Virus record (IMG/VR): IMGVR_UViG_3300037851_000519
Span: 1 to 25,735 of that record
Length of the DNA: 25,735 bases
Source: a virus
Lineage: Duplodnaviria > Caudoviricetes
Direction: 5' to 3' (one strand)
The notes under the pieces were generated by a model, which saw only the letters and a program-made list of their open reading frames with translations, did no database searches and was not told the origin of the DNA. Within the stretch, counting starts at the first letter, position 1, and every line of letters starts with the position of its first letter. Positions 554 to 19,987 of this stretch are shown piece by piece. Made by a program: the position numbers and the translations under genes.

Positions 554-597
554 GGCGCTCACATTTGCATATTGCAGGTGTGAGCGCCGTTGTTTTT
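554..597 (+). terminator. Leader hairpin with U-rich tail (possible attenuator) between promoter and portal gene
   Basis: GGCGCTCACA (554-563) / TGTGAGCGCC (579-588), extendable to 16 bp with two G-U pairs, followed by GTTGTTTTT. Confidence 0.55.
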
Positions 598-616
598 AAC
601 GAGTTCGAGGAAATTA

Positions 617-2188
617 GTGGCCTTACCATTCAAAATACTTTCTGCACGCATGAAATCACCTGAGGATATCCCTGGATATCCGCAAAATGATTATTTAACT
701 AATTTGCGGAAATACCAGGAATTAGAGCAGTGGTTTACTGGTGAGGCACTTAGAGAGGTTATCAATACACAGACCTCCGCAGTAGAAAAATTCCCCATTC
801 GGATTAACCCTGTTTATCGAACTGTACTAAAGCATGCCCAAAGTTTATTCGGGGAATACCAGGATGACGCAGAGGGACCACTCGTTATGCCCAAAGTGCG
901 AAAGCTCGACGGATCATCCGACGATACAACTCTAAAGTACGAACAAATTTTAGAGGCATTATGGTCTGACAATAGCGGTTCTGCCTCGCAGATGCGCAAT
1001 GGCATTTTTAGTCAGATTTATGGTAATTGCGTTTTCCGGCTGGCCTATGATCCATTCGACAAATTCCTGACCAATCGCTTGCGAATTGACCACATTGTTC
1101 CATACGAGTTTGTGGGTTACTCGTATCCTGATAATCCGTGGATGTTCAATGAAGCCTGGATCATCAGGAAAATATCGCGCAAAACTGCTGCGCAATATGG
1201 GTATGAAGTTGATCAGCCTACTGCTTATTATATTGAGAAGTGGACGACAATGGAATACGGCATTTACATCAACGGCGATCCGATTTCTATGGTGTTCGAG
1301 GATGAGGATTTCGTGTTTCAGAATGAAAATCCGTTTGGTTTTGTCCCATTTGTTCAGATTCCACATATTTGGGCAGTTGACCCAAACGGCGATTCGCTGA
1401 TCACCGACACCGTTACTGGTATTGTGAAAGAATACAATGCCAGATTTGCGGACGCCGGAGATGCAATCTCGAGCGATACGCATGTAACAGCAGTCATGAA
1501 GAATGTTCGTGGCACTCCGCAGGTAATAAATATAACCCCGAATCTCCGTGTAATAAACCTGGGGAGTACACAATCTCTTACTGGTGCAGGCGATAAAGAG
1601 CCGGGGCTCGAATTCCCGGAACGGCAACGCCTGGCGCCAACCATTATCGATGTCCTCCGCGAGCTATACTCCGAATATAGGCGCGAGGTATCTGTTCCTG
1701 CCGTTGCGGAAGGCGAGGACGAGGGATCACAACGATCGTCCCTGACGTTGACGACCAGGATGCAACCACTGGCTGCACATATCCGTATGGAGCGCATTAA
1801 TTGGTCTGTTGCACTTCGCATATTGCATCGAATGGGACTGATTATGCTTGCGACAATTGGAACGCCAGGTGTAGTCGCAGAAGAAATAAACGGTTTACGC
1901 ATATCATCGCGCTGGTATCCGATACTGCCGCGCGATCGCGAAATGTTGATTAACGAGCTGTCGGTACGCTCGTCTAATGATCTTGGTTCTATTGCACATT
2001 TGCTCGATCTTACTGGCGATATCGAGGACGTTGACGCCGAGATAGAAAAGATTCTGGCATGGAAGAAGCAGCTATCAGAAGCTACGGCAAAGCCCGAAGA
2101 ATCTCAACCGGAGTCAAAATCGTCATCGCAAAGTACAGCCGCGCGCGAAAAGAAAGAGACCAAGAAAGCAAGTAAGTCCGACAAGTAA
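617..2188 (+). CDS. Portal protein (SPP1 gp6-like)
   Basis: Track ORF 590-2188; start moved to in-frame GTG 617 behind GAGG (607-610), 523 aa. Portal-like motifs NPFGFVPFVQIPH (1328-1366), GDSLI and WYPILPRDRE, a charged disordered C-terminus, and first position in the head module. Confidence 0.85.
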   Translation: MALPFKILSARMKSPEDIPGYPQNDYLTNLRKYQELEQWFTGEALREVINTQTSAVEKFPIRINPVYRTVLKHAQSLFGEYQDDAEGPLVMPKVRKLDGSSDDTTLKYEQILEALWSDNSGSASQMRNGIFSQIYGNCVFRLAYDPFDKFLTNRLRIDHIVPYEFVGYSYPDNPWMFNEAWIIRKISRKTAAQYGYEVDQPTAYYIEKWTTMEYGIYINGDPISMVFEDEDFVFQNENPFGFVPFVQIPHIWAVDPNGDSLITDTVTGIVKEYNARFADAGDAISSDTHVTAVMKNVRGTPQVINITPNLRVINLGSTQSLTGAGDKEPGLEFPERQRLAPTIIDVLRELYSEYRREVSVPAVAEGEDEGSQRSSLTLTTRMQPLAAHIRMERINWSVALRILHRMGLIMLATIGTPGVVAEEINGLRISSRWYPILPRDREMLINELSVRSSNDLGSIAHLLDLTGDIEDVDAEIEKILAWKKQLSEATAKPEESQPESKSSSQSTAAREKKETKKASKSDK

Positions 2189-2277
2189 GCAATTCCCCTC
2201 ACATTCGACATTTGACAATTGAATATGAAAATGGACGGTTTTGTCCATTTATCTAATTTTTGATTAGGAGATTAGAA

Positions 2278-2925
2278 ATGCCCGAACCTATTGAAAGCCC
2301 TGTAGTTACCGGAGGCGATTCTGGTGTAAGTGGCACGTCTGGTACTGCCACCATTGTCGCGCCTGCCGCAGTTACACCGGCCGCAACGACACCCCCATCA
2401 GATGGGGAAGATTGGAAAAAGAGATTTACCGGCCTGCAAGGTAGTTACGAGAAACAGCGCCAAGAACTTGTCTCAGCGCGAACTCGTATTTCCGAATACG
2501 AGGCATCGATCGCCGGGATGGACGCAGAAAGGCAAGCACAATTGCAAAAACTCACCGAGCTCGAGCAACGCGTTGGGCAACTAGCGCCTGTTCAGGCACA
2601 GTACGAAAGGCTGCAAATTATTGCAAAGGAGTTCCCGGATCTTCTCGATTGGGAAGCTGATGGCCTCCTGCCGACAGTTACCGGAGATGAGTTGCGCACA
2701 AAGCTAACCGCTCTGAAAGCCAAGCGCCAGGCTGCTCCTGTCGCTCCCACGGCTCCATCCTTGAAGGGCGCTGTACCGTCTACTCCGCCATCGCAAGCTC
2801 CGCAAACTGCACAGGATATGTTAAATGCGGCAATGTCGGCGATGAGGGCCGGGAAGCTCGATGAATACACCGGTTATTACGATCAATGGTTGACGCTATC
2901 AGCCAAATCAAATGGAGGATCCTAG
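2278..2925 (+). CDS. Capsid scaffolding protein
   Basis: ATG 2278 behind AGGAG (2266-2270), 215 aa. Low-complexity N-terminus, DWKKRFTGLQGSY followed by coiled coil, Pro/Ala linker and short C-terminal helices; lies between portal and capsid. Confidence 0.75.
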   Translation: MPEPIESPVVTGGDSGVSGTSGTATIVAPAAVTPAATTPPSDGEDWKKRFTGLQGSYEKQRQELVSARTRISEYEASIAGMDAERQAQLQKLTELEQRVGQLAPVQAQYERLQIIAKEFPDLLDWEADGLLPTVTGDELRTKLTALKAKRQAAPVAPTAPSLKGAVPSTPPSQAPQTAQDMLNAAMSAMRAGKLDEYTGYYDQWLTLSAKSNGGS

Positions 2926-2927
2926 TT

Positions 2928-3326
2928 ATGAGCGTGAAAACTCAATTTCTTGCCACGCATCAGCAAAGCGACGGCGACGCCTTGCTGCCATATTTGAAAG
3001 AATACGATTATGGCGTTGCTGATCTGGTATCCGATAAGTACACAATTCCTGTTCCAGCCGGCTCGCTGATTTTGGGCGTGACGCATGTCGTTACCCAGGT
3101 CTGGAATGGCACAACGCCAGTTGTTGATGTTGGAGACGGAACTGACGCCGATGCGTTTATCGCTGCCGCATCAACGGCGACTCTCAATGCTGTTGCATCG
3201 TCTCTTGCTGGCGCTGCGGCCAATGCCGGAGGCTATTACTTTCCAGCGTCCGGAAAAATCGTTCTCACGCACACCACCGCGGCAACCACTGGTGCGTCGA
3301 AGGTGCTTGTGCAATATGCCTATTAA
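2928..3326 (+). CDS. Capsid cement/decoration-like small beta-sandwich protein
   Basis: ATG 2928 behind GGAGG (2914-2918), 132 aa. The pattern VPAGSLILGV..VTQVWN..VDVGDGTDADAFI..TTG..VLVQY resembles jelly-roll cement proteins (BPP-1 Bbp16-like); adjacent to the capsid gene. Confidence 0.6.
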   Translation: MSVKTQFLATHQQSDGDALLPYLKEYDYGVADLVSDKYTIPVPAGSLILGVTHVVTQVWNGTTPVVDVGDGTDADAFIAAASTATLNAVASSLAGAAANAGGYYFPASGKIVLTHTTAATTGASKVLVQYAY

Positions 3327-3348
3327 ATCCTGTTTTGGGGCAGGATTT
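3325..3348 (+). other. Short intergenic hairpin
   Basis: AAATCCTG (3325-3332) / CAGGATTT (3341-3348) with a TTTTGGGG loop. Weak terminator or mRNA-stability element. Confidence 0.4.
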
Positions 3349-3378
3349 TAATTTCCTACAGGGAGAAGGAGACTCACT

Positions 3379-4785
3379 ATGCCTGTATTTGAGCAGTATT
3401 ACGACTTAAACCCGATTGCGGTTATTGATCAGGACCAATGGGATTTTCGTTATCCCGAAGTCGCCCTGCTTTTCCGCAATTCGGCTGTATATACTCCCCT
3501 AATCGACTGGACGAATGATCCGGCCAAGTTGGGAGTCATGGGCACTATCGTTACCGAGTTGATCGAGGGCGATACCAATGCCGACGAAATTCCGTTCGAC
3601 GCGATGTATATCGATGCCCAGGGCGTTGATAGTCGATCGCGTACCTATAGCGTGAAACGCTATGGTGGAAAGGTTCAACTCAAGAAATACGAGAATCTTT
3701 TCACTCAGTGGCAAAAGGCTGGCGGGCGTGATTGGCGTCCCTTACTACGCGGCCTGCTCGGGCAGGACGTTTTACGCAAACACGAAATCCTGGCGCGCAA
3801 TATTTTCTTGCGCTCCCCGAAGGATCGCTGGACATACGGCGGCAACGCTACGAGCATTGGAACTATTGATAGTTCCGATATTTTCAATCTCGCATCTGTT
3901 CTGGATTGGAACTTCCGGCTTGGCAATACTGGTTCTCCGGTCATTCCTGGGGATGCTGCATCTGCGAAGGTCGCTATTGTCCCGCCTGGGATCGAGTATG
4001 ACATCCGCAAGGGCCTGGCGGCTGCGTCCGGCAACGAGGCCGCAATGTGGCGCGACGCGCGGCTGTATGCTGGCCAAACCTTGAACTACGAACTCGGCGA
4101 ATACTCCGGTGTACGTTTTATCAAGGCGCCGAATGATAAGTTTGGGATCAATCCTGCGGTTTTATACAACACCGGGGCGATCACCAAACAGTATGGCGTC
4201 TCAGAGCGCATCAATGCCGGTGACGGTTCTCCTGATCCCGAAACGACCAAAGTTGATGAAACCTGGTCAGTCGGGCAGAAGAATGTTACCCACTACATTC
4301 AGCTCGAAGATTTTGCTCAGAACGATTTCGCCTTGAATGATATCGTCACCATTCACACCCGGCGAACAAGCGCATATGGCGTTACCAATGGTGTCGATCC
4401 ACTCGATGGTACTGCTATCCATCGGCGTGTTGTTGCCGTGGATTACACCAACAATCGCCTTTCGTTTGATCGGCCTGTAATGTGGAGCTATCAAGTTCCG
4501 ATGGTTGCTACTCCTGTGTCCGGCGCGGCAGGTACGTACTACGCATTCGTGACTAAGGCCAAGGCAATCGGTATGGTTCTGGTGATGGGGTCACGTGGCG
4601 GCGTTTTGGGTGCGACTGCTGATCCGCTCAAGTTCTACGAGCCGAAACCAATCGATGACTTCGACAGCGTTTGGCGCTTCTCTTACGATATGGTTCTTGG
4701 CCATAACGTTTGGGAGCCAAACTATTTCGAGCTGCATTTCTGCGCCGTTTCTCAGCCAAAGCCTGGCGGGATCGTAGCGCCGTAG
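3379..4785 (+). CDS. Major capsid protein (HK97 fold, N4 gp56-like)
   Basis: AAGGAG RBS, 468 aa. AIVPPGIEYDIR...W...YA...YELGEYSGVRFIK matches the N4-gp56-family pattern; C-terminal PIDDFDSVWRFSY; follows the scaffold. Confidence 0.85.
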   Translation: MPVFEQYYDLNPIAVIDQDQWDFRYPEVALLFRNSAVYTPLIDWTNDPAKLGVMGTIVTELIEGDTNADEIPFDAMYIDAQGVDSRSRTYSVKRYGGKVQLKKYENLFTQWQKAGGRDWRPLLRGLLGQDVLRKHEILARNIFLRSPKDRWTYGGNATSIGTIDSSDIFNLASVLDWNFRLGNTGSPVIPGDAASAKVAIVPPGIEYDIRKGLAAASGNEAAMWRDARLYAGQTLNYELGEYSGVRFIKAPNDKFGINPAVLYNTGAITKQYGVSERINAGDGSPDPETTKVDETWSVGQKNVTHYIQLEDFAQNDFALNDIVTIHTRRTSAYGVTNGVDPLDGTAIHRRVVAVDYTNNRLSFDRPVMWSYQVPMVATPVSGAAGTYYAFVTKAKAIGMVLVMGSRGGVLGATADPLKFYEPKPIDDFDSVWRFSYDMVLGHNVWEPNYFELHFCAVSQPKPGGIVAP

Positions 4786-6068: not shown

Positions 6069-7163
6069 ATGGCTATTACTGCTCAAAGTGGCGCAATCGG
6101 TATGTCGATCAATGCAGGTGGAGCGAAGGACGGGGCTAATGCAAGCTGGCATCGCGTCCGCGCGCTTGCTACCGATATGTCAATCCTGGACGATACTCGT
6201 ATCGGCCCAGGTGAGATCGGTGGGATCGTTACTCCGACTATGCCCTACAAGGCCGGGTATTCGGTCGCCGGAGGCATGACTGTAATGCCACGGCTAAAAG
6301 AAACGTTTGGATGGTATTTGCTCGCCGCTCTTGGCGAGGATGCTGTCACCACTGGCAAGGATATCGATGATACTTCGGTGGTCGGACTTAACAAGCACGT
6401 TATGTCATTCAAGACAACGGATTCTGCATTTGTGCCGTATGTCAGTTTCCGCAAGCTGATCCCCAATCCGACAGCCGGAGATATTCTCGGTGAAATTTAC
6501 AAGAACTGCAAAATCCTTGGTCTTACTATGGATTTCCCTGGCGAAGGGCCTCTGCAATTCCGTATCGATGCTGCTGGCCTGGACTTTACGCTAGCCGAAA
6601 ATCCATCGTGGACCTGGGCCGCAGCTTACGAGGACTGGCAAAGTGTGCCGATCTCGTGCGTGACTGGCGGAACGGTCAAGGCCACTCCGCTTGGCGCCAG
6701 CGAGCAAACTCTGGATGTCGTTTCCGCGTCAGTGTCCCTGGTGAATGCCCCGCTTGATTTCAGGCAGGAGAAGAAATTCGGGTCTCCGTTACTGGATGGC
6801 ATCACCGTCGTCAATCGCGCCGTTACGTTCGATATGATCGTGAAGTGGAACAATCCCAATCTGTATCAGGAAATGCTGACCGGGGCGGCAGCCGGTACGG
6901 CGTGGACTGCATCGCCGTTTGTGGCAAAGGTTGAGATTACTGCTCTAACGAGCAAGTTGATCGGAACTGCTCCGCTGAACGTGCCCTGGAAAGTGCGTGT
7001 TTCGTGCCCCGAGGTCAATCTTGCGCAGGTTGGCGGGGTTGCATTGGTTGCTAGTCAGAGTTTGATGATGCGCGTGCGCGGCACTGCTATCGAACCGGGC
7101 TCCGGCTCGTATGCATCAGTTACTTTCCACAACGAGAAAGCAACGGCATACGCTATTCCGTAA
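6069..7163 (+). CDS. Major tail tube protein
   Basis: GGAGG RBS, 364 aa, beta-rich with tube-like segments (VAGGMTVMP, YKNCKILGLTMDF, RAVTFDMIVKW). Precedes the chaperone pair and TMP. Confidence 0.75.
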   Translation: MAITAQSGAIGMSINAGGAKDGANASWHRVRALATDMSILDDTRIGPGEIGGIVTPTMPYKAGYSVAGGMTVMPRLKETFGWYLLAALGEDAVTTGKDIDDTSVVGLNKHVMSFKTTDSAFVPYVSFRKLIPNPTAGDILGEIYKNCKILGLTMDFPGEGPLQFRIDAAGLDFTLAENPSWTWAAAYEDWQSVPISCVTGGTVKATPLGASEQTLDVVSASVSLVNAPLDFRQEKKFGSPLLDGITVVNRAVTFDMIVKWNNPNLYQEMLTGAAAGTAWTASPFVAKVEITALTSKLIGTAPLNVPWKVRVSCPEVNLAQVGGVALVASQSLMMRVRGTAIEPGSGSYASVTFHNEKATAYAIP

Positions 7164-7228: not shown

Positions 7229-7660
7229 ATGGCCAAACCATTCAAGCTAATTGCACCAATCGAGAAAACATTCGCTCTTACGCGTACGGATGAGCTATTT
7301 GACTCCGATGGAACCGTAGTTACTGTTCGTCAGGCGAGCCAGGCGCAACACGAATTGAGAGAAGCGATGTGGGACACTTTCGTTCGAGAGGAACGTACTG
7401 ACGACGAACTCCCGGATGGTGTTGCGGTCCGCTATGAGCAAAAGTTTTCGTTTCTTGAACTTATGCGAGTTGAGGCTCAGCTAACAGTTGTCGAGTCCAA
7501 CATCATGACGTTGGATGATAGCCAGTTATTCTGGCGCGGTATGAGCAAGGCTCAATTCGACAAAGCCTGGGGTCAACTACCTGCTGCTGTTTGCAGCGAA
7601 ATACACGCGAAGGTCCTGGAGGCCAACCCGGATTGGGCCCGCCCAAACCAGACGGCGTAG
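7229..7660 (+). CDS. Tail assembly chaperone (gpG-like)
   Basis: AGGAG RBS (7216-7220), 143 aa, acidic; sits between tube and TMP and ends at a slippery heptamer. Confidence 0.75.
   Translation: MAKPFKLIAPIEKTFALTRTDELFDSDGTVVTVRQASQAQHELREAMWDTFVREERTDDELPDGVAVRYEQKFSFLELMRVEAQLTVVESNIMTLDDSQLFWRGMSKAQFDKAWGQLPAAVCSEIHAKVLEANPDWARPNQTA
7642..7648 (+). promoter_or_regulatory. Programmed -1 ribosomal frameshift site C CCA AAC
   Basis: X XXY YYZ heptamer in the correct phase, 3 sense codons before the G stop. The -1 frame is open to 7989. Confidence 0.7.
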
Positions 7661-7989
7661 GGGGAGTAGATCGTGTAAATGTAAAAATTGACGGCCTCAA
7701 GGATGCTATTCGCGAATATCTGGGTGGCCTCAATGAGGTAAGAGCAGGTGGTAGGGCAAGTCAAATGCCGCCCAAGCCCGAGGCGATGATCCTATATGAA
7801 CAGTGTTTAAACATGCAAATTCCTATAGTACAAGGTGGTCTCCGCGATCAGCCGCATATCTGGTTATTGGAATGGCGGGTGATCCAGCAAGAGTTAGAGC
7901 TATGGGAAGCTGTTCATCGTAGGAACAATGAGGCCGTAAATGCCGCGCAAAGCCAAGAATTCACCAGCCCATTCACAAGTCCTTTCTAG
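7648..7989 (+). CDS. Tail assembly chaperone T segment (C-terminal part of a ~253-aa G-T frameshift product)
   Basis: Track ORF 7591-7989 lies in the -1 frame of G. It has no convincing own start or RBS near its 5' end and contains GGLRDQPHIWL, typical of pre-TMP proteins. Confidence 0.65.
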   Translation, partial: PDGVGGVDRVNVKIDGLKDAIREYLGGLNEVRAGGRASQMPPKPEAMILYEQCLNMQIPIVQGGLRDQPHIWLLEWRVIQQELELWEAVHRRNNEAVNAAQSQEFTSPFTSPF

Positions 7990-10900
7990 GAATCCATTCC
8001 GCATTGGTCCAAGAAATCAAGAGACCTTGTGGGATGAGATTAAAAACGCATTCGAGTTTGAAACTTCTGGCGCCGGAAGGAATATCGATGACTACGAGAT
8101 CGAGCATCTATATGACTCGTTAGAAAGCTTTACGCGCGTACGAGTACTCAATAAGATTTCCGGAAAGTCGCAGACCATTGATCTTCGCAGAGTTGGCGAG
8201 CGCAACGAAGAAACCGCGGCGCTTCAAATTGTACATCACGGCGACGCAACTCAGGGTGGCGGTATTCTGCCACAGATTGAGGCCGCATCCGATTTCGGCT
8301 GGAACAATCTTGCGTATTCATATGTTTCGCCAACGAGGGTTTTGTCTCGCGCGTTAGCAGCCAGCCTGGAAAAACGTGCGCCATCGTTTTATAAGATACT
8401 TGGCGAGGGATCCGAAAGGTACGGCGTGGCGAGCCACAAAGCAGCCGGAGACGAATCGATAGTCGCCGGTGGTCTTATTGGCGCGCTGTCGTATTCCGGA
8501 CAATCGCAAATCAATATGCTATATGGATCTGTCAATATTCAGATACCAGGAAGCGTCGGCGGCGAAAGAGTTTTAGGCGATATCAGGCAGGAACAGCGAT
8601 ACTTGCAATCGCTTGGGGTCTCGATGGAAAGCGGTATGCTGCGCGATTTTGGGGGAGCTGGCTATCAAATTAGAACAACGAGCGCAGTACCGCGCGCCCA
8701 ACGTACGGTATATGATCCACTAGTTGAAACGGACGCGGCCGGGATTCCCAGGATAACTGGCCTGGCGCATGCCTACACAAAATCCGGCGAGCCACTTCCA
8801 GCAAAAGCCTACAAACACGGTCAGGCTGCATTCGGTCCAAATAGAGAGGTTGCAATGCCGATGATTGGGTGGACGCCGGCGCAACCAAGCCCATTTGAGT
8901 TTGAACTGAAGAAGAGTAGAGGTGTCACGCGTGCCGATTATCCCTTCTATTCTCAATTGCGTGGCAGGTTTGAGCAGTGGGAGCAGCAAGAGATAAGAGA
9001 CGATAGCGGAAATATTATTCAGGATGCTGCCCCATTGCATAACGTCAAAGTGGGACTTCAGCTATTCCCCAATGCCGTACCATTTGAGTCTGGTTCCCAA
9101 AAGTTCGATCCGACAATGCGTAATATCGATAGTTTCGCTATCCAGCAACCAAGATACATGAGATTGCCAGGAATACAGACGATTGACGATCTGACATCAA
9201 TCCAGAATCTATCAATTGATGCCGGCAGGGTTATTGGTGCAGGGCATGGGTCGGCAATCATCGGCCAGTTGAATGGTTCGGATATTCGCATGGCTCGGAG
9301 AGCGCGCGAGCAAATGGTTGTTGGCGGAAGTGCATCCCTTGTAATCCCGCCATACATGAATCTTAATCCCCAAGAGGGAGAATCCCCATTTCTCGGAACT
9401 GCGCCGGATGTACTTCCTAGTGGCTCTACAATTAAAAGCACAGAGGAACTGGCTAGAAATCTGAGCGAAAGACTTGGAATGCCGGTTTATCGCCGCGAAG
9501 TAGATGCTGTTGGTTTGCGATTTGAGACATTATCCAAAACACAAGCTGCACTCAAATTCGCGGGGCTCAAGACATCCGAGTCGCCGGTAATATCGGGTTT
9601 GCCTATTATGGCAACGATCGGTGGGGAAAAAGTTAGAGTATCGGATGTCGGCTCCGAGATCAAGACCGCTCCACTGATGGTGTCGCAATCATTTATGATG
9701 TTCCCGCAGAGGATGAAAGCAAATTGGGCCGGTTTGCTTGGGTCTGATGAATTCACAAATTGGGTATCACGGGCCCCAGAAAATACAACGATTGACGAAT
9801 ACGCGCGTCAGTATTCTGGGTTTTCTGGAAAACGAACGAGCTGGCTCGAGATGGTTGGACAAATGTATCGCGGCGTGCTCCAACAGCCTGAGGGTCTTGA
9901 TACTCTAAAAAAGTACGGATATACACCAGTCAAGACTCCTCAGTGGGTTAATTGGGATCTCATGAGCGAGGGAGAGGTCGCCATTCATCGCAATGCTATG
10001 CGAGAGCAGGGCTATACGCAAGAGCAAATAGATCAGCGATTACGTTTTACGCCAGATCCCAAAAGACAGGGGATGTACCAGGCATCATTTTTTATGCAAT
10101 CCGGTTTGCTCGGTTTTGGCGCGCAGGACTATGTACCCGAGCTAGAGGGCTGGGGCATCATGAATTATCGTCAGGTAGCGGCCATGAAAACTTATTTTCC
10201 GGAAGCGTTTTCGTCCATATTTGCTGGGCGCCTGGCCACAAACGAATTGAGCGCGCCAGATAAACAGGGATGGAACGAACTCCTTAGTTGGTACTCGTGG
10301 GATCGCGAGTCTGTTACCGGGGAATATCCGATATTCGCCGGAAAAGATGTATCCACGTTGATCACAAGAGAAACTGCCGGAAAACTCAATTTCCTTACTC
10401 GGCATCCTGACCAGATTACCGGATTGAGCGAAGAAGAGGCGGCCAGGATCGCAGAGGTTGGAGCTGGCGGCCTTACAGAGCTGGAGAGAATGACTCTCTA
10501 TGACAAGGCGATAAAAACTGCCGCGCCAGATTACAAATCCGGGAATATGCTTTATTACGAAAGCTCGAATTTATATATACCTGGCCCACGATCAATCAGA
10601 TCGATTGACGAATTCAACGAAGCTGGCGAGTCCACCGGATATGCCTCAAAGTCGTGGCTATCCATGTTTGGAAAAGCAAATGTTGCGTCTGGACAAGGAC
10701 AATCAAATATCGATGTTCAGAAATCGGCCTACAGATTTCGCAAGATGATGGATAATCGATTGTCGGGAAAGAATATTGCCAAAAATGTATTCGGCTATGA
10801 TGCGCCTGGAATGATCTTTGAGCGTTATATCGGCATGGGCGCGCTAAAACCGAATGAAGTATTTCTCGGTGAGGGTACACTTCGCAGATCCATAGAGTCT

Positions 10901-13900
10901 CTGCCCGGAATAACAAGCAGCGGCACGCGCCGAATGATGCACAGCCTAACTGGTGGCGTGTCGCCAGAAGTTTTATACATGGCATCAAAATTCGCAGAGC
11001 GCGAGGATGCTGTCGGCGGTTTATCTAAAGCTCTAATCGATAAATATCCCAATCTTTATACTGGCGCTTCTGGCGCTAAGGGATCTGCTCGTGTAACCTA
11101 CGAGGACAGAGCAAGGAAAGATGCAGCGCGTTTCCTGTCAAAACAAGCAGCGCTGGCGAACGCATATATTCCATCGTTTTCGTTTAGACAGCCTGATACC
11201 AGCAGAGGAAGCGTTCTCCCAACGAGAACGATTACTGCTCATCAGTTGGCGGCAAGGGGTATTGATCCGAAAACATTTGCTGGCGTGAATACTGGCATTT
11301 CATCCTGGTTTTCCGCGATGGGCGTGGGCGATTGGGACAGAGATCCAATGCAGACGTTCTTCTCTGTTACCAGGAGCGGGAATAAATATACGCAACACCT
11401 TTCCCCGGAAGCCGCGCAGTGGAACGAGGAACTCGATGCGATGACCGCGAATTTCGCGGGTCGTCTTGGTCTGAAAGAGGCTGATGTATTCTCCGCTATG
11501 GAGGGAATGTTCGGAGATAAGGCGAATGATCTAAATATTGTTAGCGCAACCCTGAAAGGGTACATGGACGCTCAGGCTGGCGGGGCCCCTGCATACGAGA
11601 AGGGTCTTGTAATGGAACGAAGGCCATACAGCGAATTTGGCGATCTAAATACCATGTGGGGATCACAAAAACGTGATATGGGCTCTGTGTACAATATTCA
11701 GCGGCTCATTGAGTCTGCGGCTGGCTCTGTGGCAGCGTTTACCGGAGAGAATGAAAAGACATTTGTCGAGAATGTGTTCGATCCGAACCAGGCTGAATAC
11801 CAGGCTGCGCTTGACTTCTCTCGATATGGCAAGAACAATCCCCTATTTACAATGCTGACAACTGCCCGGTTTTTCCGCGAAGGTGGCGGCCAAGCGCCTA
11901 ACGCAAAACTGAATTTCGGCTTTTATTTTGACGATCCAACTAAATCCGGCAACTTTATTTCCGCGATGTCGAGTGGCCAATCTGATCCGTCCAACTTGGT
12001 CAATGCCATGATCGGGGAATTGGCGATAGACAAAAATGGCAAGCACTATATGAGCAATAGTGCGCTTGCGTCCCTGTTTTCGCCAAATATGGACGCATTC
12101 AGTAGAAATGTCCAGGCATTGGACGAGTTCGACAGACTGAAAGCCGCAAATGACCCGATGGTGGCTGGAATGTCGCGCGCTGGTGTATTGCGTGGCGATT
12201 TTATCGGTAAGCACGATGTTCTCGGAAACGTGAGTGTTTCCGAACGATCGATCGCTCCAATGGCGATTATGGCGACTGGCGTTGGCAAATCCTTGACGAG
12301 CTCGCATGAAAAGTATGCGACAACGCAGGCCGTTGCCGATGACATGGATTTTGGGGTAAGCTGGATGGGGTCGACTCAAACAATGTCGCAGATATTCAAT
12401 TCGCCAGAGGTATATCTGACGAATATGATCAATCGGTATCAGCGCAAAGAAAATCTAAAAATCCCACAATCCGAGAAAATCATGGCCATCTCGGCCATGC
12501 GTACACTGGCTGGAAGGATGAGGGGGACTGGAAATAAAAACGAGCCACTTACCGATGATGCATTAGCAAAAATGCCTATTGCAGTTCAGGAACTTGCGCG
12601 TTCTTACCGCCAAGGCATGGGCGATCAGGATTGGCTACGATATACTCAGGGAACACAAAATATTGATCAGCTGCTTGGCGAAGAACTTGCGTCAATGCGC
12701 GTGAAAGTGGCCGGGGCGCTGATGACCGGAGAACTTGGTACACCGATGAATGTCCGAACATCCGAATTGTCCGGTTATATCAGGGGTGATGCCAGATACA
12801 AGAATAACCCGCTCAAGAAAATGCAGTTGTCCAGAATGGGATACAACCGCGAGACAATCGAGTCGATGTATCCATTCAGGGGCGATGAGGGAAAGGCGAG
12901 GTCCGGAAATGAATTCGAGAGCCAGTTCGCCGCGGCCGCTCGCCAACTAACACTAAAGTCGAAAGCACAAGGCGCGCCGGCGTGGGGAGGCGGCACACGT
13001 TTTGCGCACGTTGGTAGTGGGGCTGGCGCAAACGCTGGCGGATATCTCGAGATGCCTGCTGGTGGCTCGACATATCGCGGGTTTAGGATGTCGATATCTC
13101 CGGATATTATAGGTTGGGATCCAGATGCGAAAAGATTTTATTGGGGAGAGGCAAAATATTCGCGAAGCTCGGATTACGTTGAACAGGGCAAACTTCAAAA
13201 TGCCTTATACGTAGCTGGCGCCACAAGAATGGCAAACGATCCCGGCAATTTCGATGCTATGCAACAGGCATTCTACAAGTATCTATCTGATGATCCGGTG
13301 GAATGGGCAGAAATGCACCAGGCGATAGCGGGAGGGCAAAACGCTGCATTTGCGGTAACTCCAACCGACAGCAGGATAACAGCCAACGAAGAGACAAGAG
13401 GCAAATTGAATAGCCTCCTGGCGCAAAAGCAGGAAATGCTTGCCAAAAATAGTGGCGCAGATACGGCGGAAATTGACGAAAAAATCTCTGCTATTGCCGG
13501 GAACCTTGATCGATTCGATATTGGTGACTACAAAGTCAGTTTATTTGATTACCAGAAAGTGCTTTCGGAAAACCAGAAGGCCATTGATACATTCGCTGCG
13601 GAGTCCTCAGATCCGCAAATCTTCGCCAGGAAAGTAATTGAGAGTGGAGTTTTCAAAGACCTGCGAAGAAATCGCATTTCAGATCGCGGCCTTAGAGCGT
13701 GGGCATACGAAACGCTTGGCACAAAAGACCCGGACGCGCCAACTGCGTCGGGTGTCAATATCGCCGGGCGCAGATTATCCGATGCCGAGCGCGAACGTGG
13801 TACATCTACACTAAAGGGCGCTCTTGCGGGCTACAGGAGAGCGTCTGGAATCGCCGGCCAGGATCGTGGAAGCGATTATACTGGCGGCGCGGGTGGCCCA

Positions 13901-16900
13901 CCTCCGCCTGGGGCTGCTTATACTGATGACGACGAGCAGCCAGGAGACAGACCTCCGGGCTCCGGTAGCACTCCCGAGGACTGGCAAAAATATCTATCTG
14001 GGATTTCCGGCGCTATAGAGCGTGGAATAAATAGGGGAATGGCCGGCGCAAAGGTAAATGCAGTAATTGATTTTGGCGGTGGCAACAAGCGGCCTGGCGA
14101 CTGGAAAATGGCTCGGGCCTTGGGCGTTGCAACCAAACTCGGGAATATAGTTCGTGGAACTGACAACCTAATGACGCTGCCAACCAGAATCGGTGGTGCT
14201 TTGGAGCAGTCGGGCTTGCTTGGATCCACGAAATTTAGCGATTATCCTGGTCTAAGCCAGGCCATGACCGTTGCTCTTGCGGCAGACCGCAGGAGATTTG
14301 CAGATGTTCTTTCCCCGTTCAGAAAAGAACTCAAGATGGCAAGCGGGCTAATGGTAGAGGGATCACAGGCGCTTGTCGGACCCGGTACAATGCAATCCTA
14401 TGGGCTCGATCTCGAGGATCCGGTTATTTCGCAGATTGCTAAAGGTCTGTTCGGTAATCCAGAAGAAAAAGGCGAATTCGGCAGATTCTTGAGAGAATCC
14501 GTAGAGGCTCAGGCTGCATATGGCGCGTCTATTGCTACTCCTGCCGAAGCAAACAGAGCAGAAAGACAGAGAGCAATATCAGCAGCATTCGCAACCAGGA
14601 TGGATAAGGGGTCTCTTGCTCAAATGGCTTCCGGACTAGCGGGCGCATATGGGATTTCGCTTACCCCATCGCAGAGCAGAGCAGATGTAATTAATACACT
14701 GGCTGGGGCGATAAAGGGCGATCCCCAAGAATTTATAAACTATCTTTCCGCAACCCCATCGATGCACGATTATTTCGGTGATCTACGAGCCACCGCAAAA
14801 AAACTCGGGGGTGATTATAGCCAATTCACGGCCAATGCGTCTGCGGGACCACAATATGGCCCAGAATATGGTGCGTTTGCAGAGGCGTTAGCCGGCATAG
14901 ACGATACCGATTATGGAAAGATCAAATACGATTTTATGGCTGTGCAGGAGGATATGCTTGCCAGAAATAGATGGGCGCGACAGGTTGGAAGGACATCCGG
15001 AATATTCGCCGCTGGCGCGCGTGGATCGGCGACGAGTTTCGATGCTACATCGCGCCAGGCGGCTATAAGCTCTCTCGACGACGATATAGCCAAGATGCAA
15101 GAGCAAATGGAGAAACTTGCATCGGGACTCGATTCGGGTATAAGAGGAGTGACAAAGGATCTTGGGCTTGCAATCGCCGAATTAGGCAAAGTAACATCAG
15201 CATATCAAGCTGACGCGATGCCTTCCGACACAGCCGTATTGACAGCCGGTATTCTCACTGACATTATCGGTAAACACGGTTCAATAGCCGAGGCGAAATT
15301 CAAAAGAGCCGCGCTCGAGGCAAGGACTGGCCCTGCGCACGGCGACACCAGAGATGCGGCGAACGACTACTTCCTGGCAAATGCCGAGGCTCAGCAGGCT
15401 CGCGAGGCATACGCAAAGATACCATCGCACTATCCAATGTCCGCAAGGCAAAGAGCGGCAGAGCGACGTATGTCTACTGCGCTCGATGAGGGTATTGCTC
15501 ATACCAGACTATCAATGAGACTGGCGCGTACCGCGCTTGCTGGCGAATTGGGAGAGGGCGACGAAAGTATAATCCCCGAAAGCCCTGGGGCATTACAGGC
15601 TTATGCTGCAACAAAGACGGGTCTTAGCCGGGAACAGATTGCGGAATTCGCAAAATACAAGGCAACCGTTGATGCACACGATACCGCTAAATCAGCAAAG
15701 CTCGAATATGATACTTCCAGAGTGGCCGCTCCCTGGCAGGGCGAACAGAATAAGCAGGCGCTTACGAGATTAGGCGACTTCAACGATAAGATCAAACAGT
15801 TGGGAGACACGCTCGAACACGGCACTCGATATAGTGGACGCTTTGCCCGTGATATGGCAGAACTGACCGAGGCCATAGCGCGCGACGATCTGCGGGATGT
15901 TGTCAATAAGATCGGAAGGGCAACGGGTATTGATCCGACCGATAAGACACCTGAACAAATGCAAGACATAATTTCCGGGAGGATGAGTAGGCTTAGCGCG
16001 CGCATGAGTCGCCGATGGACGCCAGAACGACAATCCGAGTTTGATGCTCTTGAATCGTATCAGCGCCAACTTGGAGTAGAACAACAAAAATATGGATTGG
16101 CGCAAAACGCACTTCAGTATCAGTCGGAAGATTATGGCATGGGCGGCTTTTTCCGTCGAGCATTTGGCGGTTTTGGTTTATTATATATGCGCGGAATTGC
16201 CAGCAATATTTTCGGCGGATTGAGAACTGGACGCGAGGAACGGCTACAGCAAGAACAGCAAATATATTCGGCAATTGCGCCTGCATTTGGAGGTGTCGAG
16301 TATATCGCGCCAGAACAAAGAGCAGCTATGGCGCGCGGTCTCTATGGCGGATCGTTCTCGGCTTGGACGTCTAATATTAGCGCGAATATTATGCAAAGAT
16401 ATCCTGGCATGAATGCAGCGGCAAATGTTGCACAGGCTGGAATATTCGGTTTTGCTGGCGCTTCCTGGCTGGCATCTTTATCGCCTGCGTTGGCCGGTAT
16501 CGCTGGCGGCACTTTGCCGTTTGCTGGCGTTGCAGCCGGAATAGCCGCTGCGGGAACTTACGGGATGGGGATTTACAGCGCATATAGCGATGTTGAGGGT
16601 ACGGCCGTTGGTATGGCATCCAGATATTTGCCGACCGGGCTGACGGCCCAAGAGAGATATACGAGTGCGGCTAGGCAAGGAGGCGGTTTTGGTCCATATT
16701 GGTCTGAATTCGTAGTAGCTCCTCAGGGTATTGCGTGGCTCGGTAGTGATAGCCAAAGAGAAACCACTTCTAATATCGAGCAAATGATTGATATTATGCA
16801 GAAGGGTGGCGTTAGTCCCGCAGAGGCAGCACGAAAGGTACTCGGAATTGGAGCGCATCGCAACGAGATCGAAAAATATGTAATGATGTATACCAGAGCA

Positions 16901-19900
16901 ACGCGCATAAACAGCGAATCCGGAGTAGACATAGAGACCGCCGCCAAAGCGGTTGGATTGGGAGCCAAATACGGTATACCTGAATATTCGTGGCATCCAA
17001 CAGCGGCGAGTGGTCTATCAATACGAAGTGACGTATACGCTCCGCTCGGGGCTGCACTTCAAGCCGGAATCAATGTCGAGGGTCTAGCACTTGGCGTTGG
17101 CCAAGCTGCCGGATGGTCGCCTATTCAGTCTCAGGCAAATGTTTCAGCGATTGTCACAAACATGATGACGAGTTTCGGTGGAGTATTGGGGGCGCAAATG
17201 ACATCGGCGCAAGCTGATATTCTTCAAGCGGCTACACAGCGATACGCTCAACTTGGCCCGTATGCCGGAATGCCCGGATCGTCATCGGAAGAACAACTTG
17301 CTGCTCTAAGAAAGTTGCAACAATTTGGTGCTCTTGGCAGCAAGCAATGGGATATTTATCAAAGAGAATGGACTAAAAAGCAACAGGAGCATCTCGAATT
17401 TGGCAAAATAATGCCAACGGCAGACGAATTGCTTGACGAATTAAGCGGAAAACCTTGGTGGGCATCCGGGAGTGGAGCCGGCGAGGATATGGGCACAACT
17501 GCGTATACAGCACAGTTGCGTCAGTACGCGGAATGGGAAAGGAAATTCGGAGCCAAATCAAAGATAAAAGAGGTTCTTATCCAGGCGGGATTCGAGGGTG
17601 ACGATGCCCGCAGAATAGTTGGCGGTCTAGGCGAATTCACTCAGGGTAGAGCCCAGGATTTGTTACAACGATTGTCGGCTGTCGATAATATTCGGGAGTC
17701 GCTTGTTTCTGGACGATGGAAGTCGCAAGAAGAGGCGCGCGAGATAGCGAAAGGTATGCTCAGGGATACTCTCGAGGAGTACAGGCGCGATAGAGATAGA
17801 CCGAGCATGCAAGAAGAACAACGCGCACTTAGAACTCCCGACCAGTGGAATCCGCAGCAACTTGCCATTCAGGCCGCAGCTCTGCGCTTCGACCAGGGTG
17901 CGCTTGCGTATGCCAATGCTAACCAAATGAACTTGGCCGGTATGGGGCAAGTCCCATTCTATCTGGTTGGCCAGGAAGTTGGTCAGTTCGGGCCATTTCA
18001 GAATCGGGTGACTGGACAGCCATTGTTCTCTACAACAATGCAGTGGGGTCGGCCTGGTGGCACAACCGATCTTGGCGGGATCAAAGGCGCGCCAACTGGC
18101 CTTACGGCAGAACAAGTAGCGGCAATTCTTTACGGGACAAAGAACTGGCAGCAGCAAGGGCCGCTTGGCGGCAGATTGATCCAGGGAATGGTGCAAGGTG
18201 TAGACATTGGTATACAGGGAATTCCGCAAATTGGCGGTTTGATGGCTGCACAGTTTATGATGGCCCAGGCAAGCTATCAAAACCAAATGGCGTCCATTGG
18301 CAACTCGATGGCGCAACTGAATTTACAGTACGCGTTCCAGACCGGTGTTGGGCTTGATAAATACTCCGGTATCGTCAATCCGCAAACCGGAGTGCCGTTT
18401 GGGGTAAGCTCAAAGGGCTATGGATGGAATATACCTGGCATCGGCAGCTATAAAAGTACGGGGGGAGGCTTCTGGGGGCTCGAGGACGCAAGTCGGGCGC
18501 TTGGCTATGCCCAACAGGAATGGCAATTTGGGCAACAAGAAAAACAAATGCAAATGCAAGAGCGATTCTTCAACCAGAATATGGGATTGCAGACTCGTCA
18601 GGCGCAGATGCAACGCAACTGGACGCAACAGGATTGGGCATTCCAGTCTCAGGTACGTGGACTTGAGTGGCAGTGGAAACAAGAGGATTTTCAAGAAGAA
18701 GTCCGTTTCATGACCGGGCGCGAGCGAAAGAAGGCGGAACGCGGCATGGAGCGCGAGACCATCATGTATGGTCTCGAGGGCGAGCAAATTGATAAGCAGA
18801 AAAAGCGTCAGCAAGAGCTATGGAAGCTCGAGGATGAGCGGTTTACAATCCAGCGCCAGCAGCATCAAGAAACGATGCAGTTCCAGCGAGAGCAGCTTGC
18901 CACGCAAATAGCATTCTTCCAAGAGCGTAAAAAGATTGAGGATGAGCAGGTTAAGCTACAGCGCGCGCAGTGGACCGAGCAAATGAAACTTCAGCGCGAG
19001 GCCCTTGGTATTCAGGCTAAACAAGCAAAAGACCAGAAAGATTACCAGGATTTGCAACTTAAGATCCAGACTTTGCAAGTGGCAATAAATACTGGCATTG
19101 GCGACAGCCAGGTTCTTAGCGATGAATTATGGAAAACGATACAGAAATGGCTCAAGGATCTTGGTATTATGGCCGGGAATTTACCGACTGGCGGGGGCGG
19201 TGGCAGTGGCGGGTGTTTTATCGCTGGAACCCCGATCGCTACACCGGCCGGGAATGTTTTGATCGAGGATATATCAGTTGGCGATCAAGTATACAGCTAC
19301 GATGAGAACAATAGAGAAATAACTATTGGACTTGTTGATCATATACTTAGGTCGTCATCGAACAGTGTATACGATGTTAGTATCGGTGGTCAGACATTCC
19401 GGTGCACATGGAATCACCCCTGGCTAACAACGCGTGGATGGGTCAAGGCAAAATATCTGGCTCCTGGCGATACCGTACTCACCATGAACGGCTCTGATAT
19501 ATCCGAAACGGAAGTGGAAAGCTCGGTTAGCGTAGATGGGAGTTTCCCTATTTACAACTTTGAGGTTGCGGTTACCCACACATACTTTGCCGACCAGTAT
19601 GTCGTTCACAATATACAGCAAAAAACGTCTACGAGTGGTGGTGGCAGCGGGACCATTACTGCGCCACCGGGCAGTCCCGCCAGTGGCGGCATATTCAACG
19701 GGCGCGCGTTGTCATTCGCGTCCGGTGGTTTTACTGTCCCGCCTGGATACCCAAATGATCTGTTCCAGCTTTGGGCATCATCCGGAGAGCGCGTTACTGT
19801 TACCCCGAGATGGGCTAATGCAGCTGTATCTACAAAGGAATTACAAAATCCGTGGAATAGTTCGTTGATGCTAAACAACAATGGCGTAGGTGGGGGCAAC

Positions 19901-19987
19901 GGAAATGTAACCATCGTATTGAATGTTGGCGATCAGCATCTTGGCAAATATGTTCTAAATACTATAAATCAGGAGATTAGTCTATGA
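7940..19987 (+). CDS. Giant tape measure polyprotein (4015 aa): putative virion RNA polymerase + PD-(D/E)xK nuclease + tape measure + Hint domain
   Basis: TMP position after G/GT; GAGG RBS (7930-7933). Gly/Ala hydrophobic segments (~16140-16585), Gln-rich helical region (~18510-19080) and TMP C-terminal motif FASGG..PGYPND..SSGERV (19715-19795). Enzyme motifs are listed separately. Confidence 0.85.
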   Translation: MPRKAKNSPAHSQVLSRNPFRIGPRNQETLWDEIKNAFEFETSGAGRNIDDYEIEHLYDSLESFTRVRVLNKISGKSQTIDLRRVGERNEETAALQIVHHGDATQGGGILPQIEAASDFGWNNLAYSYVSPTRVLSRALAASLEKRAPSFYKILGEGSERYGVASHKAAGDESIVAGGLIGALSYSGQSQINMLYGSVNIQIPGSVGGERVLGDIRQEQRYLQSLGVSMESGMLRDFGGAGYQIRTTSAVPRAQRTVYDPLVETDAAGIPRITGLAHAYTKSGEPLPAKAYKHGQAAFGPNREVAMPMIGWTPAQPSPFEFELKKSRGVTRADYPFYSQLRGRFEQWEQQEIRDDSGNIIQDAAPLHNVKVGLQLFPNAVPFESGSQKFDPTMRNIDSFAIQQPRYMRLPGIQTIDDLTSIQNLSIDAGRVIGAGHGSAIIGQLNGSDIRMARRAREQMVVGGSASLVIPPYMNLNPQEGESPFLGTAPDVLPSGSTIKSTEELARNLSERLGMPVYRREVDAVGLRFETLSKTQAALKFAGLKTSESPVISGLPIMATIGGEKVRVSDVGSEIKTAPLMVSQSFMMFPQRMKANWAGLLGSDEFTNWVSRAPENTTIDEYARQYSGFSGKRTSWLEMVGQMYRGVLQQPEGLDTLKKYGYTPVKTPQWVNWDLMSEGEVAIHRNAMREQGYTQEQIDQRLRFTPDPKRQGMYQASFFMQSGLLGFGAQDYVPELEGWGIMNYRQVAAMKTYFPEAFSSIFAGRLATNELSAPDKQGWNELLSWYSWDRESVTGEYPIFAGKDVSTLITRETAGKLNFLTRHPDQITGLSEEEAARIAEVGAGGLTELERMTLYDKAIKTAAPDYKSGNMLYYESSNLYIPGPRSIRSIDEFNEAGESTGYASKSWLSMFGKANVASGQGQSNIDVQKSAYRFRKMMDNRLSGKNIAKNVFGYDAPGMIFERYIGMGALKPNEVFLGEGTLRRSIESLPGITSSGTRRMMHSLTGGVSPEVLYMASKFAEREDAVGGLSKALIDKYPNLYTGASGAKGSARVTYEDRARKDAARFLSKQAALANAYIPSFSFRQPDTSRGSVLPTRTITAHQLAARGIDPKTFAGVNTGISSWFSAMGVGDWDRDPMQTFFSVTRSGNKYTQHLSPEAAQWNEELDAMTANFAGRLGLKEADVFSAMEGMFGDKANDLNIVSATLKGYMDAQAGGAPAYEKGLVMERRPYSEFGDLNTMWGSQKRDMGSVYNIQRLIESAAGSVAAFTGENEKTFVENVFDPNQAEYQAALDFSRYGKNNPLFTMLTTARFFREGGGQAPNAKLNFGFYFDDPTKSGNFISAMSSGQSDPSNLVNAMIGELAIDKNGKHYMSNSALASLFSPNMDAFSRNVQALDEFDRLKAANDPMVAGMSRAGVLRGDFIGKHDVLGNVSVSERSIAPMAIMATGVGKSLTSSHEKYATTQAVADDMDFGVSWMGSTQTMSQIFNSPEVYLTNMINRYQRKENLKIPQSEKIMAISAMRTLAGRMRGTGNKNEPLTDDALAKMPIAVQELARSYRQGMGDQDWLRYTQGTQNIDQLLGEELASMRVKVAGALMTGELGTPMNVRTSELSGYIRGDARYKNNPLKKMQLSRMGYNRETIESMYPFRGDEGKARSGNEFESQFAAAARQLTLKSKAQGAPAWGGGTRFAHVGSGAGANAGGYLEMPAGGSTYRGFRMSISPDIIGWDPDAKRFYWGEAKYSRSSDYVEQGKLQNALYVAGATRMANDPGNFDAMQQAFYKYLSDDPVEWAEMHQAIAGGQNAAFAVTPTDSRITANEETRGKLNSLLAQKQEMLAKNSGADTAEIDEKISAIAGNLDRFDIGDYKVSLFDYQKVLSENQKAIDTFAAESSDPQIFARKVIESGVFKDLRRNRISDRGLRAWAYETLGTKDPDAPTASGVNIAGRRLSDAERERGTSTLKGALAGYRRASGIAGQDRGSDYTGGAGGPPPPGAAYTDDDEQPGDRPPGSGSTPEDWQKYLSGISGAIERGINRGMAGAKVNAVIDFGGGNKRPGDWKMARALGVATKLGNIVRGTDNLMTLPTRIGGALEQSGLLGSTKFSDYPGLSQAMTVALAADRRRFADVLSPFRKELKMASGLMVEGSQALVGPGTMQSYGLDLEDPVISQIAKGLFGNPEEKGEFGRFLRESVEAQAAYGASIATPAEANRAERQRAISAAFATRMDKGSLAQMASGLAGAYGISLTPSQSRADVINTLAGAIKGDPQEFINYLSATPSMHDYFGDLRATAKKLGGDYSQFTANASAGPQYGPEYGAFAEALAGIDDTDYGKIKYDFMAVQEDMLARNRWARQVGRTSGIFAAGARGSATSFDATSRQAAISSLDDDIAKMQEQMEKLASGLDSGIRGVTKDLGLAIAELGKVTSAYQADAMPSDTAVLTAGILTDIIGKHGSIAEAKFKRAALEARTGPAHGDTRDAANDYFLANAEAQQAREAYAKIPSHYPMSARQRAAERRMSTALDEGIAHTRLSMRLARTALAGELGEGDESIIPESPGALQAYAATKTGLSREQIAEFAKYKATVDAHDTAKSAKLEYDTSRVAAPWQGEQNKQALTRLGDFNDKIKQLGDTLEHGTRYSGRFARDMAELTEAIARDDLRDVVNKIGRATGIDPTDKTPEQMQDIISGRMSRLSARMSRRWTPERQSEFDALESYQRQLGVEQQKYGLAQNALQYQSEDYGMGGFFRRAFGGFGLLYMRGIASNIFGGLRTGREERLQQEQQIYSAIAPAFGGVEYIAPEQRAAMARGLYGGSFSAWTSNISANIMQRYPGMNAAANVAQAGIFGFAGASWLASLSPALAGIAGGTLPFAGVAAGIAAAGTYGMGIYSAYSDVEGTAVGMASRYLPTGLTAQERYTSAARQGGGFGPYWSEFVVAPQGIAWLGSDSQRETTSNIEQMIDIMQKGGVSPAEAARKVLGIGAHRNEIEKYVMMYTRATRINSESGVDIETAAKAVGLGAKYGIPEYSWHPTAASGLSIRSDVYAPLGAALQAGINVEGLALGVGQAAGWSPIQSQANVSAIVTNMMTSFGGVLGAQMTSAQADILQAATQRYAQLGPYAGMPGSSSEEQLAALRKLQQFGALGSKQWDIYQREWTKKQQEHLEFGKIMPTADELLDELSGKPWWASGSGAGEDMGTTAYTAQLRQYAEWERKFGAKSKIKEVLIQAGFEGDDARRIVGGLGEFTQGRAQDLLQRLSAVDNIRESLVSGRWKSQEEAREIAKGMLRDTLEEYRRDRDRPSMQEEQRALRTPDQWNPQQLAIQAAALRFDQGALAYANANQMNLAGMGQVPFYLVGQEVGQFGPFQNRVTGQPLFSTTMQWGRPGGTTDLGGIKGAPTGLTAEQVAAILYGTKNWQQQGPLGGRLIQGMVQGVDIGIQGIPQIGGLMAAQFMMAQASYQNQMASIGNSMAQLNLQYAFQTGVGLDKYSGIVNPQTGVPFGVSSKGYGWNIPGIGSYKSTGGGFWGLEDASRALGYAQQEWQFGQQEKQMQMQERFFNQNMGLQTRQAQMQRNWTQQDWAFQSQVRGLEWQWKQEDFQEEVRFMTGRERKKAERGMERETIMYGLEGEQIDKQKKRQQELWKLEDERFTIQRQQHQETMQFQREQLATQIAFFQERKKIEDEQVKLQRAQWTEQMKLQREALGIQAKQAKDQKDYQDLQLKIQTLQVAINTGIGDSQVLSDELWKTIQKWLKDLGIMAGNLPTGGGGGSGGCFIAGTPIATPAGNVLIEDISVGDQVYSYDENNREITIGLVDHILRSSSNSVYDVSIGGQTFRCTWNHPWLTTRGWVKAKYLAPGDTVLTMNGSDISETEVESSVSVDGSFPIYNFEVAVTHTYFADQYVVHNIQQKTSTSGGGSGTITAPPGSPASGGIFNGRALSFASGGFTVPPGYPNDLFQLWASSGERVTVTPRWANAAVSTKELQNPWNSSLMLNNNGVGGGNGNVTIVLNVGDQHLGKYVLNTINQEISL
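9554..11830 (+). other. Two-barrel (DPBB) RNA polymerase domain within the TMP (motif-bounded)
   Basis: Ordered motifs: KFAGLK (aa 539-544, weak), RLSGKNIAKNVFG (aa 940-952), LKPNEVFL (aa 969-976), RQP (aa 1083-1085), GDWDRDPM (D1131/D1133/D1135), MGSVYN (aa 1247-1252), QAALDFSRYG (aa 1288-1297). Confidence 0.75.
12752..13210 (+). other. PD-(D/E)xK nuclease domain within the TMP (RecB/Cas4/lambda-exonuclease-like)
   Basis: VRTSEL (aa 1605-1610), GNEFE (aa 1656-1660), SPD (D1722), EAK (aa 1737-1739) and QNALY (aa 1753-1757, QxxxY) occur in canonical order. Confidence 0.7.
19214..19612 (+). other. Hint (intein-like) domain, 133 aa, no homing endonuclease
   Basis: CFIAGTPI (C3759), IEDISVGDQV, block B TWNHPW, YNFEV..THTYFA..VVHN (N3891). 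The +1 residue is Ile. Flanked by Gly/Ser linkers. Confidence 0.92.

Follow-up and report, generated by a model that had tools for sequence, protein, structure and literature searches.

Where tape measure proteins carry cargo, it is usually a cell-wall enzyme. Tape measures carrying an RNA polymerase have been published for one Thermus phage group, as described in the available text of PMC10770324. The sequence considered here, a whole virus record of 25,735 bases (hereafter the window), raises a further question: what a nuclease would do inside such a protein, directly behind polymerase motifs. A preliminary description, made from the window's letters and open reading frames, had placed a PD-(D/E)xK nuclease between a polymerase-motif region and a tape-measure-like body, and this placement is borne out by the analysis below. 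We therefore ask whether the domain is real, how constantly it accompanies the polymerase motifs, and on which nucleic acid it might act.

Genomic setting of the large open reading frame

The features of the window are collected in Table 1. The head-tail module also includes an adaptor gene matching PF24175, and no sheath gene was recognised in the window's tail module. The capsid protein has 468 residues against 356 and 324 positions in the matching profiles, which suggests an insertion, and the overlap of the two ORFs in the chaperone position suggests a programmed frameshift. The 4,015-residue ORF is likely the tape measure, given its position and its Gln-rich coiled-coil composition; no tape-measure match was obtained for it in Pfam or PHROG, and its C-terminal Hint domain is the sole domain confirmed by library searches. 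Since the Hint domain ends in His-Asn followed by Ile, self-cleavage is likelier than splicing. The protein contains two cysteines only (3759 and 3822), both inside the Hint domain, so that its first 3,758 residues are cysteine-free. One weakly hydrophobic segment lies near residue 2850, and a Gly/Pro-rich spacer follows the nuclease at about 13900-14000 of the window, similar spacers being present in relatives with and without the nuclease.

Table 1. Coordinates of the features of the window, with the evidence for each; residue numbers refer to the 4,015-residue ORF.
Feature	Position	Strand	Evidence
Portal to major capsid protein	590..4785	+	Portal 590-2188, phrog_64, E 3e-13; major capsid protein 3379-4785, phrog_1357, E 0.003; TIGR04387 weak
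Tail tube protein	6069..7163	+	Pfam PF18906, 30.8 bits (cut-off 27); phrog_290
Two overlapping ORFs in the tail-assembly-chaperone position	7229..7989	+	Position; homologues in the same place in relatives; putative function
4,015-residue ORF in the tape-measure slot	7940..19987	+	Follows the tail tube gene and two chaperone-like ORFs
Two-barrel RNA polymerase-type motifs R1083-x-P1085 and D1131-x-D-x-D1135	11183..11344	+	Invariant in 29/29 aligned proteins
Predicted PD-(D/E)xK nuclease domain, residues 1604-1790 (core motifs 12752-13210)	12749..13309	+	Leave-out profile without window and L018; alignment A8
VRTSEL, N-terminal xRxSE-type motif	12752..12769	+	Motif reading and A8; S1608 kept in 13/15 aligned domains
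GNEFE, helix motif G1656-x3-E1660	12905..12919	+	A8; G in 15/15, E in 11, H in 3, K in 1
Predicted catalytic core P1721-D1722 and E1737-x-K1739 (ISPDIIG 13094-13114; WGEAKY 13142-13159)	13094..13159	+	A8; D and K in 15/15, acidic residue at 1737 in 14/15
QNALY, Q1753-x3-Y1757, RecB-type QxxxY	13196..13210	+	Not one MAFFT column; read by eye in relatives
Conserved Gln-rich coiled-coil region, tape-measure-like body	18080..19100	+	Used for collecting relatives
Hint (PT-HINT) domain, Cys3759 to His-Asn3891, then Ile	19214..19612	+	Pfam PF07591, 43.3 bits (cut-off 27.7)

Relatives of the large protein

Direct homologue searches with the nuclease domain or the polymerase region, one of which covered only proteins of 824-2,350 residues, found nothing, and no true homologue of the window's domain was present among 1.8 billion representatives. 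Two candidates were rejected: P0002 (E 6e-4), a repeat protein matching 39 non-catalytic residues, and L001, whose match consists of one identical 8-mer, read in a frame that two other ORFs overlap. Relatives were instead collected through neighbouring and conserved parts of the module, a search with the capsid protein giving 7 IMG/VR loci, and searches with tail tube and C-terminal coiled-coil alignments giving 27, 13 and 24 loci together with one GTDB contig that ends in the tube gene. Repeats of one contig or sequence were merged, and loci ending before about residue 900 of the large gene were dropped (L002-L004, L020, L022, L023, L025, L026, L028, L031, L035-L040, L042 and L043). The final set comprises 30 proteins including that of the window, of which L021 stops short of the slot that follows the polymerase motifs. 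The start motif of the Hint domain is seen in 3 of the 30 (window, L030, L064), some of the proteins being truncated. L043, from the end of a contig of 9 kb, is assigned to a Magnetococcales bin, but was not used as evidence on the host.

The nearest relative is a homologue of 3,413 residues (L008/L018), 27% identical over residues 43-2181. It keeps the motifs FRQPD, GDxDRD, G-x3-E, PD, ExK and the glutamine of QxxxY, while TSE is replaced by AGD and the tyrosine of QxxxY by N. Its identity to the window's protein is 24% within residues 1601-1800, as compared with 26-36% in the polymerase region.

Polymerase-type motifs ahead of the nuclease

A DxDxD motif occurs at residues 864-1296 in 29 proteins, and in their alignment no column is invariant except R-x-P and the three aspartates; as these rows were picked by DxDxD, R-x-P is the independent sign. 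The remaining protein (L055:3452-11026) has a related C-terminal body, no DxDxD in its available part, and an HExxH metallopeptidase-like motif near residue 940. No significant match of the polymerase region to a solved polymerase or to gp96 of Thermus phage P23-45 was obtained, and the Atlas gave no usable match for it; in a profile comparison with gp96, the best local match pairs the two R-x-P motifs at E 0.19. The same absence of sequence similarity held for gp96 before its structure was solved (available text of PMC10770324). Virion polymerases of the gp96 type have a double-psi barrel fold and transcribe pre-early genes. On these two short motifs, the region ahead of the nuclease is a probable RNA polymerase.

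Identification of the predicted PD-(D/E)xK domain

The five motifs VRTSEL, GNEFE, ISPDIIG, WGEAKY and QNALY, named in the preliminary description, all lie in frame at the places given there, within residues 1605-1757, and the four residues it predicted to be catalytic (E1660, D1722, E1737 and K1739) are present and correctly numbered in the ORF. When the sequence was block-shuffled 5,000 times, the ordered chain of five motifs never arose (0 of 5,000) and the bare core PD..ExK arose in 163 copies, rates that understate chance because the patterns were fitted to the sequence afterwards. Conservation in relatives is the stronger evidence for the domain.

For this purpose, 15 domains were aligned over 213 columns (alignment A8), L024 and L034 being left out as cut by contig ends. 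The domains are 13-21% identical to that of the window. Three columns are invariant, G1656, D1722 and K1739, and position 1737 is E or D in 14 of the 15. The glutamate at position 1660 is kept in 11 of the 15 domains. The motif QxxxY, read by eye in the 16 carriers that reach it, has its glutamine in 15 and its tyrosine in 10. The earlier remark that Fe-S cysteines are absent extends to the whole alignment, in which no domain contains a cysteine.

With the window and L018 both left out, the family profile retrieves residues 1604-1790 of the window's protein from the 30-protein set at E 4.4e-4, the best of the 11 non-carriers reaching 0.24. At E below 0.02, such leave-out profiles recovered only 8 of the 15 domains; those missed were L018, L076, L067, L066, L027, L059 and L048. 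In the PDB, the A8 profile has its best match in the PD-(D/E)xK nuclease Shedu SduA (E 0.029), in an alignment that pairs D, ExK and QxxxY. The PDDEXK_1 cut-off (PF12705, 22 bits) is passed by 3 of 17 nuclease domains, namely L027 (25.2 bits), L059 (23.1) and L070 (25.6), and the same three match PHROG exonuclease families (3 of 15 rows), two of them a Cas4-like family. The other 14 of the 17 domains matched no nuclease family at all, YqaJ (PF09588) was listed for none of the 17, and the window's domain alone had no match in Pfam, PHROG, NCBIfam or the PDB. In the Atlas, the window's domain lies near unnamed viral clusters (0.92), with Tox-REase-9 (0.89) and VRR-NUC (0.87) serving as leads only.

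Structural models of the domain were generated using AlphaFold and are of low confidence, with a pLDDT of 34.6 from the single sequence and 45.0 with A8. In the latter model, a helix carries E1660, and the strands at which D1722 and ExK are placed lead into a helix; this predicted order of helix, strands and helix is the one described in the available text of PMC3424549. Fold searches with the same low-confidence model are uninformative on the fold: the best Foldseek match in the PDB had E 1.1, the best viral match E 0.09, and the best VIA match Z 3.7 over one helix. Overall, the stretch very probably has a genuine PD-(D/E)xK fold, and we infer that the domain is quite likely to be catalytically active, within a superfamily that includes both RNases and inactive members (PMC3424549, available text).

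Distribution of the predicted nuclease among relatives

By eye and by profile, the slot behind the polymerase motifs holds a nuclease in 17 of the 28 proteins that reach it and none in the other 11. The co-occurrence of the two domains proposed as a check in the preliminary description therefore stands for the 17 carriers and fails for the 11 others, and the nuclease is an optional, not an obligatory, partner of the polymerase. No copy elsewhere was found in seven non-carrier records, five of them at least 90% complete, in a low-sensitivity search whose control lay inside the profile and which could miss distant stand-alone nucleases; a PF12705 search of nine records also missed known carriers and was not used. 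Since the nuclease is absent from 11 of 28 proteins and no copy was seen elsewhere in the five records at least 90% complete, any role it has is dispensable.

The distance from DxDxD to a conserved motif of the body, where it is measurable, is 1,053-1,612 residues in 13 carriers vs 728-1,105 residues in 10 non-carriers. A motif-chain pattern derived from the carriers matches 15 of the 17 carriers and 0 of the 11 non-carriers, at shuffle rates of up to 13%; the match in L041 is off target, and L024 and L066 are missed.

The polymerase region was used for a quick tree, on which three labels for the slot require 11 changes; shuffled labels average 12.6, with 43 of 200 shuffles as low. Counting strongly supported branches alone, the non-carrier label must still change at least 4 times. 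The carrier L066 pairs with the non-carrier L064 at a support of 99 and the carrier L067 with the non-carrier L072 at 94, while the non-carrier L053 groups at 99 with four carriers of both helix types. Many of the branches are long, and in the absence of a root gain is indistinguishable from loss.

Several loci show further variation around the slot. In L034 (10316-11758), a DEDD-exonuclease-like motif without a Pfam match precedes, by eye, a RecB-type domain in the same slot; the nuclease domain of L066 (5867-6379) has a degenerate third motif and may be inactive; and in L032 (12293-14832), about 2.5 kb with an extra 333-residue ORF stands between the tube gene and the large gene downstream.

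Proposed role of the nuclease and alternative readings

The reading that we favour, tentatively, over the alternatives below is that the domain is an accessory PD-(D/E)xK nuclease that would be delivered with the polymerase and would trim the incoming end of the phage DNA on its 5' strand. Its motifs are those found in RecB, Cas4 and lambda-type enzymes, which act on ends (available text of PMC3424549 and PMC4176176). In the available text of PMC10770324, gp96 keeps its polymerase in virions as a full-length protein and is proposed to stand at the entry pore; by analogy, the domain is likely carried in the virion within the full-length protein. On the same analogy with gp96, the N-terminal half, with polymerase and nuclease, would reach the cytoplasm with the DNA at infection, and the tape-measure body would form a channel that holds both at the entry pore, where the phage's own leading end would be the first nucleic acid met by the nuclease. 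Limited 5'-3' resection of that end would then leave a 3' single-stranded end, which could serve in circularisation or recombination or be transcribed by the polymerase as its template, and relatives without the nuclease would rely on host enzymes. If the rest of this reading holds, the incoming genome end has close to an even chance of being the substrate.

Lambda exonuclease is a ring, and the several copies of the large protein expected in one tail may bring their nuclease domains together in a ring of that kind. It is a decidedly unlikely extension of the same idea that, across a widespread uncultured phage group, such a ring strips one strand and feeds single-stranded template to the fused polymerase, the slot being an exchangeable exonuclease cassette.

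A different target is conceivable, although it is somewhat unlikely that the domain acts in conflict, being injected to cut the DNA of the host, resident mobile elements or defence nucleic acids and thereby aiding early takeover. Conflict genes typically show the kind of patchy gain and loss seen on the polymerase tree, where carriers have non-carriers as sisters, the two named Atlas leads would suit such a function, and Cas4-type enzymes are also endonucleases (PMC4176176, available text); however, the phage genome would be the first target of an unspecific enzyme at the pore, the window has no recognised immunity-like gene, and all the cargo recognised in the slot is of the exonuclease type.

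Delivery itself may be questioned, and an active nuclease could work late in infection or be cut off during tail assembly, never being delivered, which we regard as improbable. Many tape measure proteins are processed, and a folded domain would have to pass a narrow tube; on the other side, the sole self-cleavage domain found sits at the far C-terminus, and the lack of any cysteine outside the Hint domain would be expected of a protein that is threaded unfolded. The full-length state of gp96 in virions (PMC10770324, available text) also speaks against early removal.

An RNA-processing nuclease, trimming or turning over the transcripts of the neighbouring polymerase or host RNA, is quite improbable. 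The domain always lies directly behind the polymerase motifs, and the G-x-x-F-E helix motif of several members presumably resembles that of Rai1/DXO enzymes, but the library matches of the relatives are to DNA exonuclease families, with no Rai1/DXO match. RNases do occur in the superfamily (PMC3424549, available text). Least probable of all is a domain that does not cut, either a non-catalytic relic or a cap that binds the DNA end and shields or guides the genome. Inactive superfamily members do exist (PMC3424549, available text), L066 is degenerate and the nearest relative L018 is without two accessory motifs; yet it is exactly the catalytic D and K that stay invariant, and 14 of 15 domains keep their acidic partner.

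The setting is a separate group of phages of roughly 80-90 kb in which the polymerase motifs are kept throughout and the nuclease behind them has been gained, lost or swapped. The sister pairs with and without the nuclease (L067/L072 and L066/L064) offer natural controls, and the domain is small enough to be expressed, which opens a route to the role of a virion-delivered nuclease in the first minutes of infection.

Comparison with known systems

Enzymes of the lambda exonuclease and YqaJ type (PF09588) share with the window's domain what we take to be a helix glutamate, an (S)PD motif, ExK and an N-terminal motif resembling S/T-x-S-E. Their hallmark is a toroidal oligomer that works as a processive 5'-3' exonuclease on dsDNA. 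They differ in setting, the window's domain being embedded in a likely tape measure and not encoded as a free early gene beside an annealing protein. RecB/AddB/Cas4-like nucleases (PDDEXK_1, PF12705) share motifs I, II, III and QxxxY (available text of PMC4176176), and three relatives score above the cut-off of that family, whereas the window's own domain is below detection and no helicase or CRISPR context was seen. Cas4 enzymes have four conserved Fe-S cysteines (PMC4176176, available text), in contrast to the 15 aligned domains, all of which are cysteine-free.

Polyvalent injected phage proteins, in the available text of PMC5512222, are likewise large and multi-domain and deliver enzymes with the DNA. 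The carrier here is instead a tail lumen protein, and the terms "tape measure" and "REase" are absent from the main text of that source. In the literature searched, which left most subscription papers outside it, we found no description of a tape measure whose fused polymerase is followed by a nuclease; the supplements to the gp96 study may list further homologues, and in its main text no word begins with "nuclease" (PMC10770324).

The closest parallel is gp96 of Thermus phage P23-45. In our comparison it has no nuclease-profile match above shuffled copies and no nuclease motif between residues 1100 and 2600, and it carries a metallopeptidase where the window's protein carries a Hint domain. 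In common with the window's protein, it is a giant protein in the tape-measure slot with R-x-P and DxDxD (gp96 D779) in its N-terminal part, and it belongs to a phage with a long non-contractile tail (PMC10770324, available text); the window's tail module is without a recognised sheath gene.
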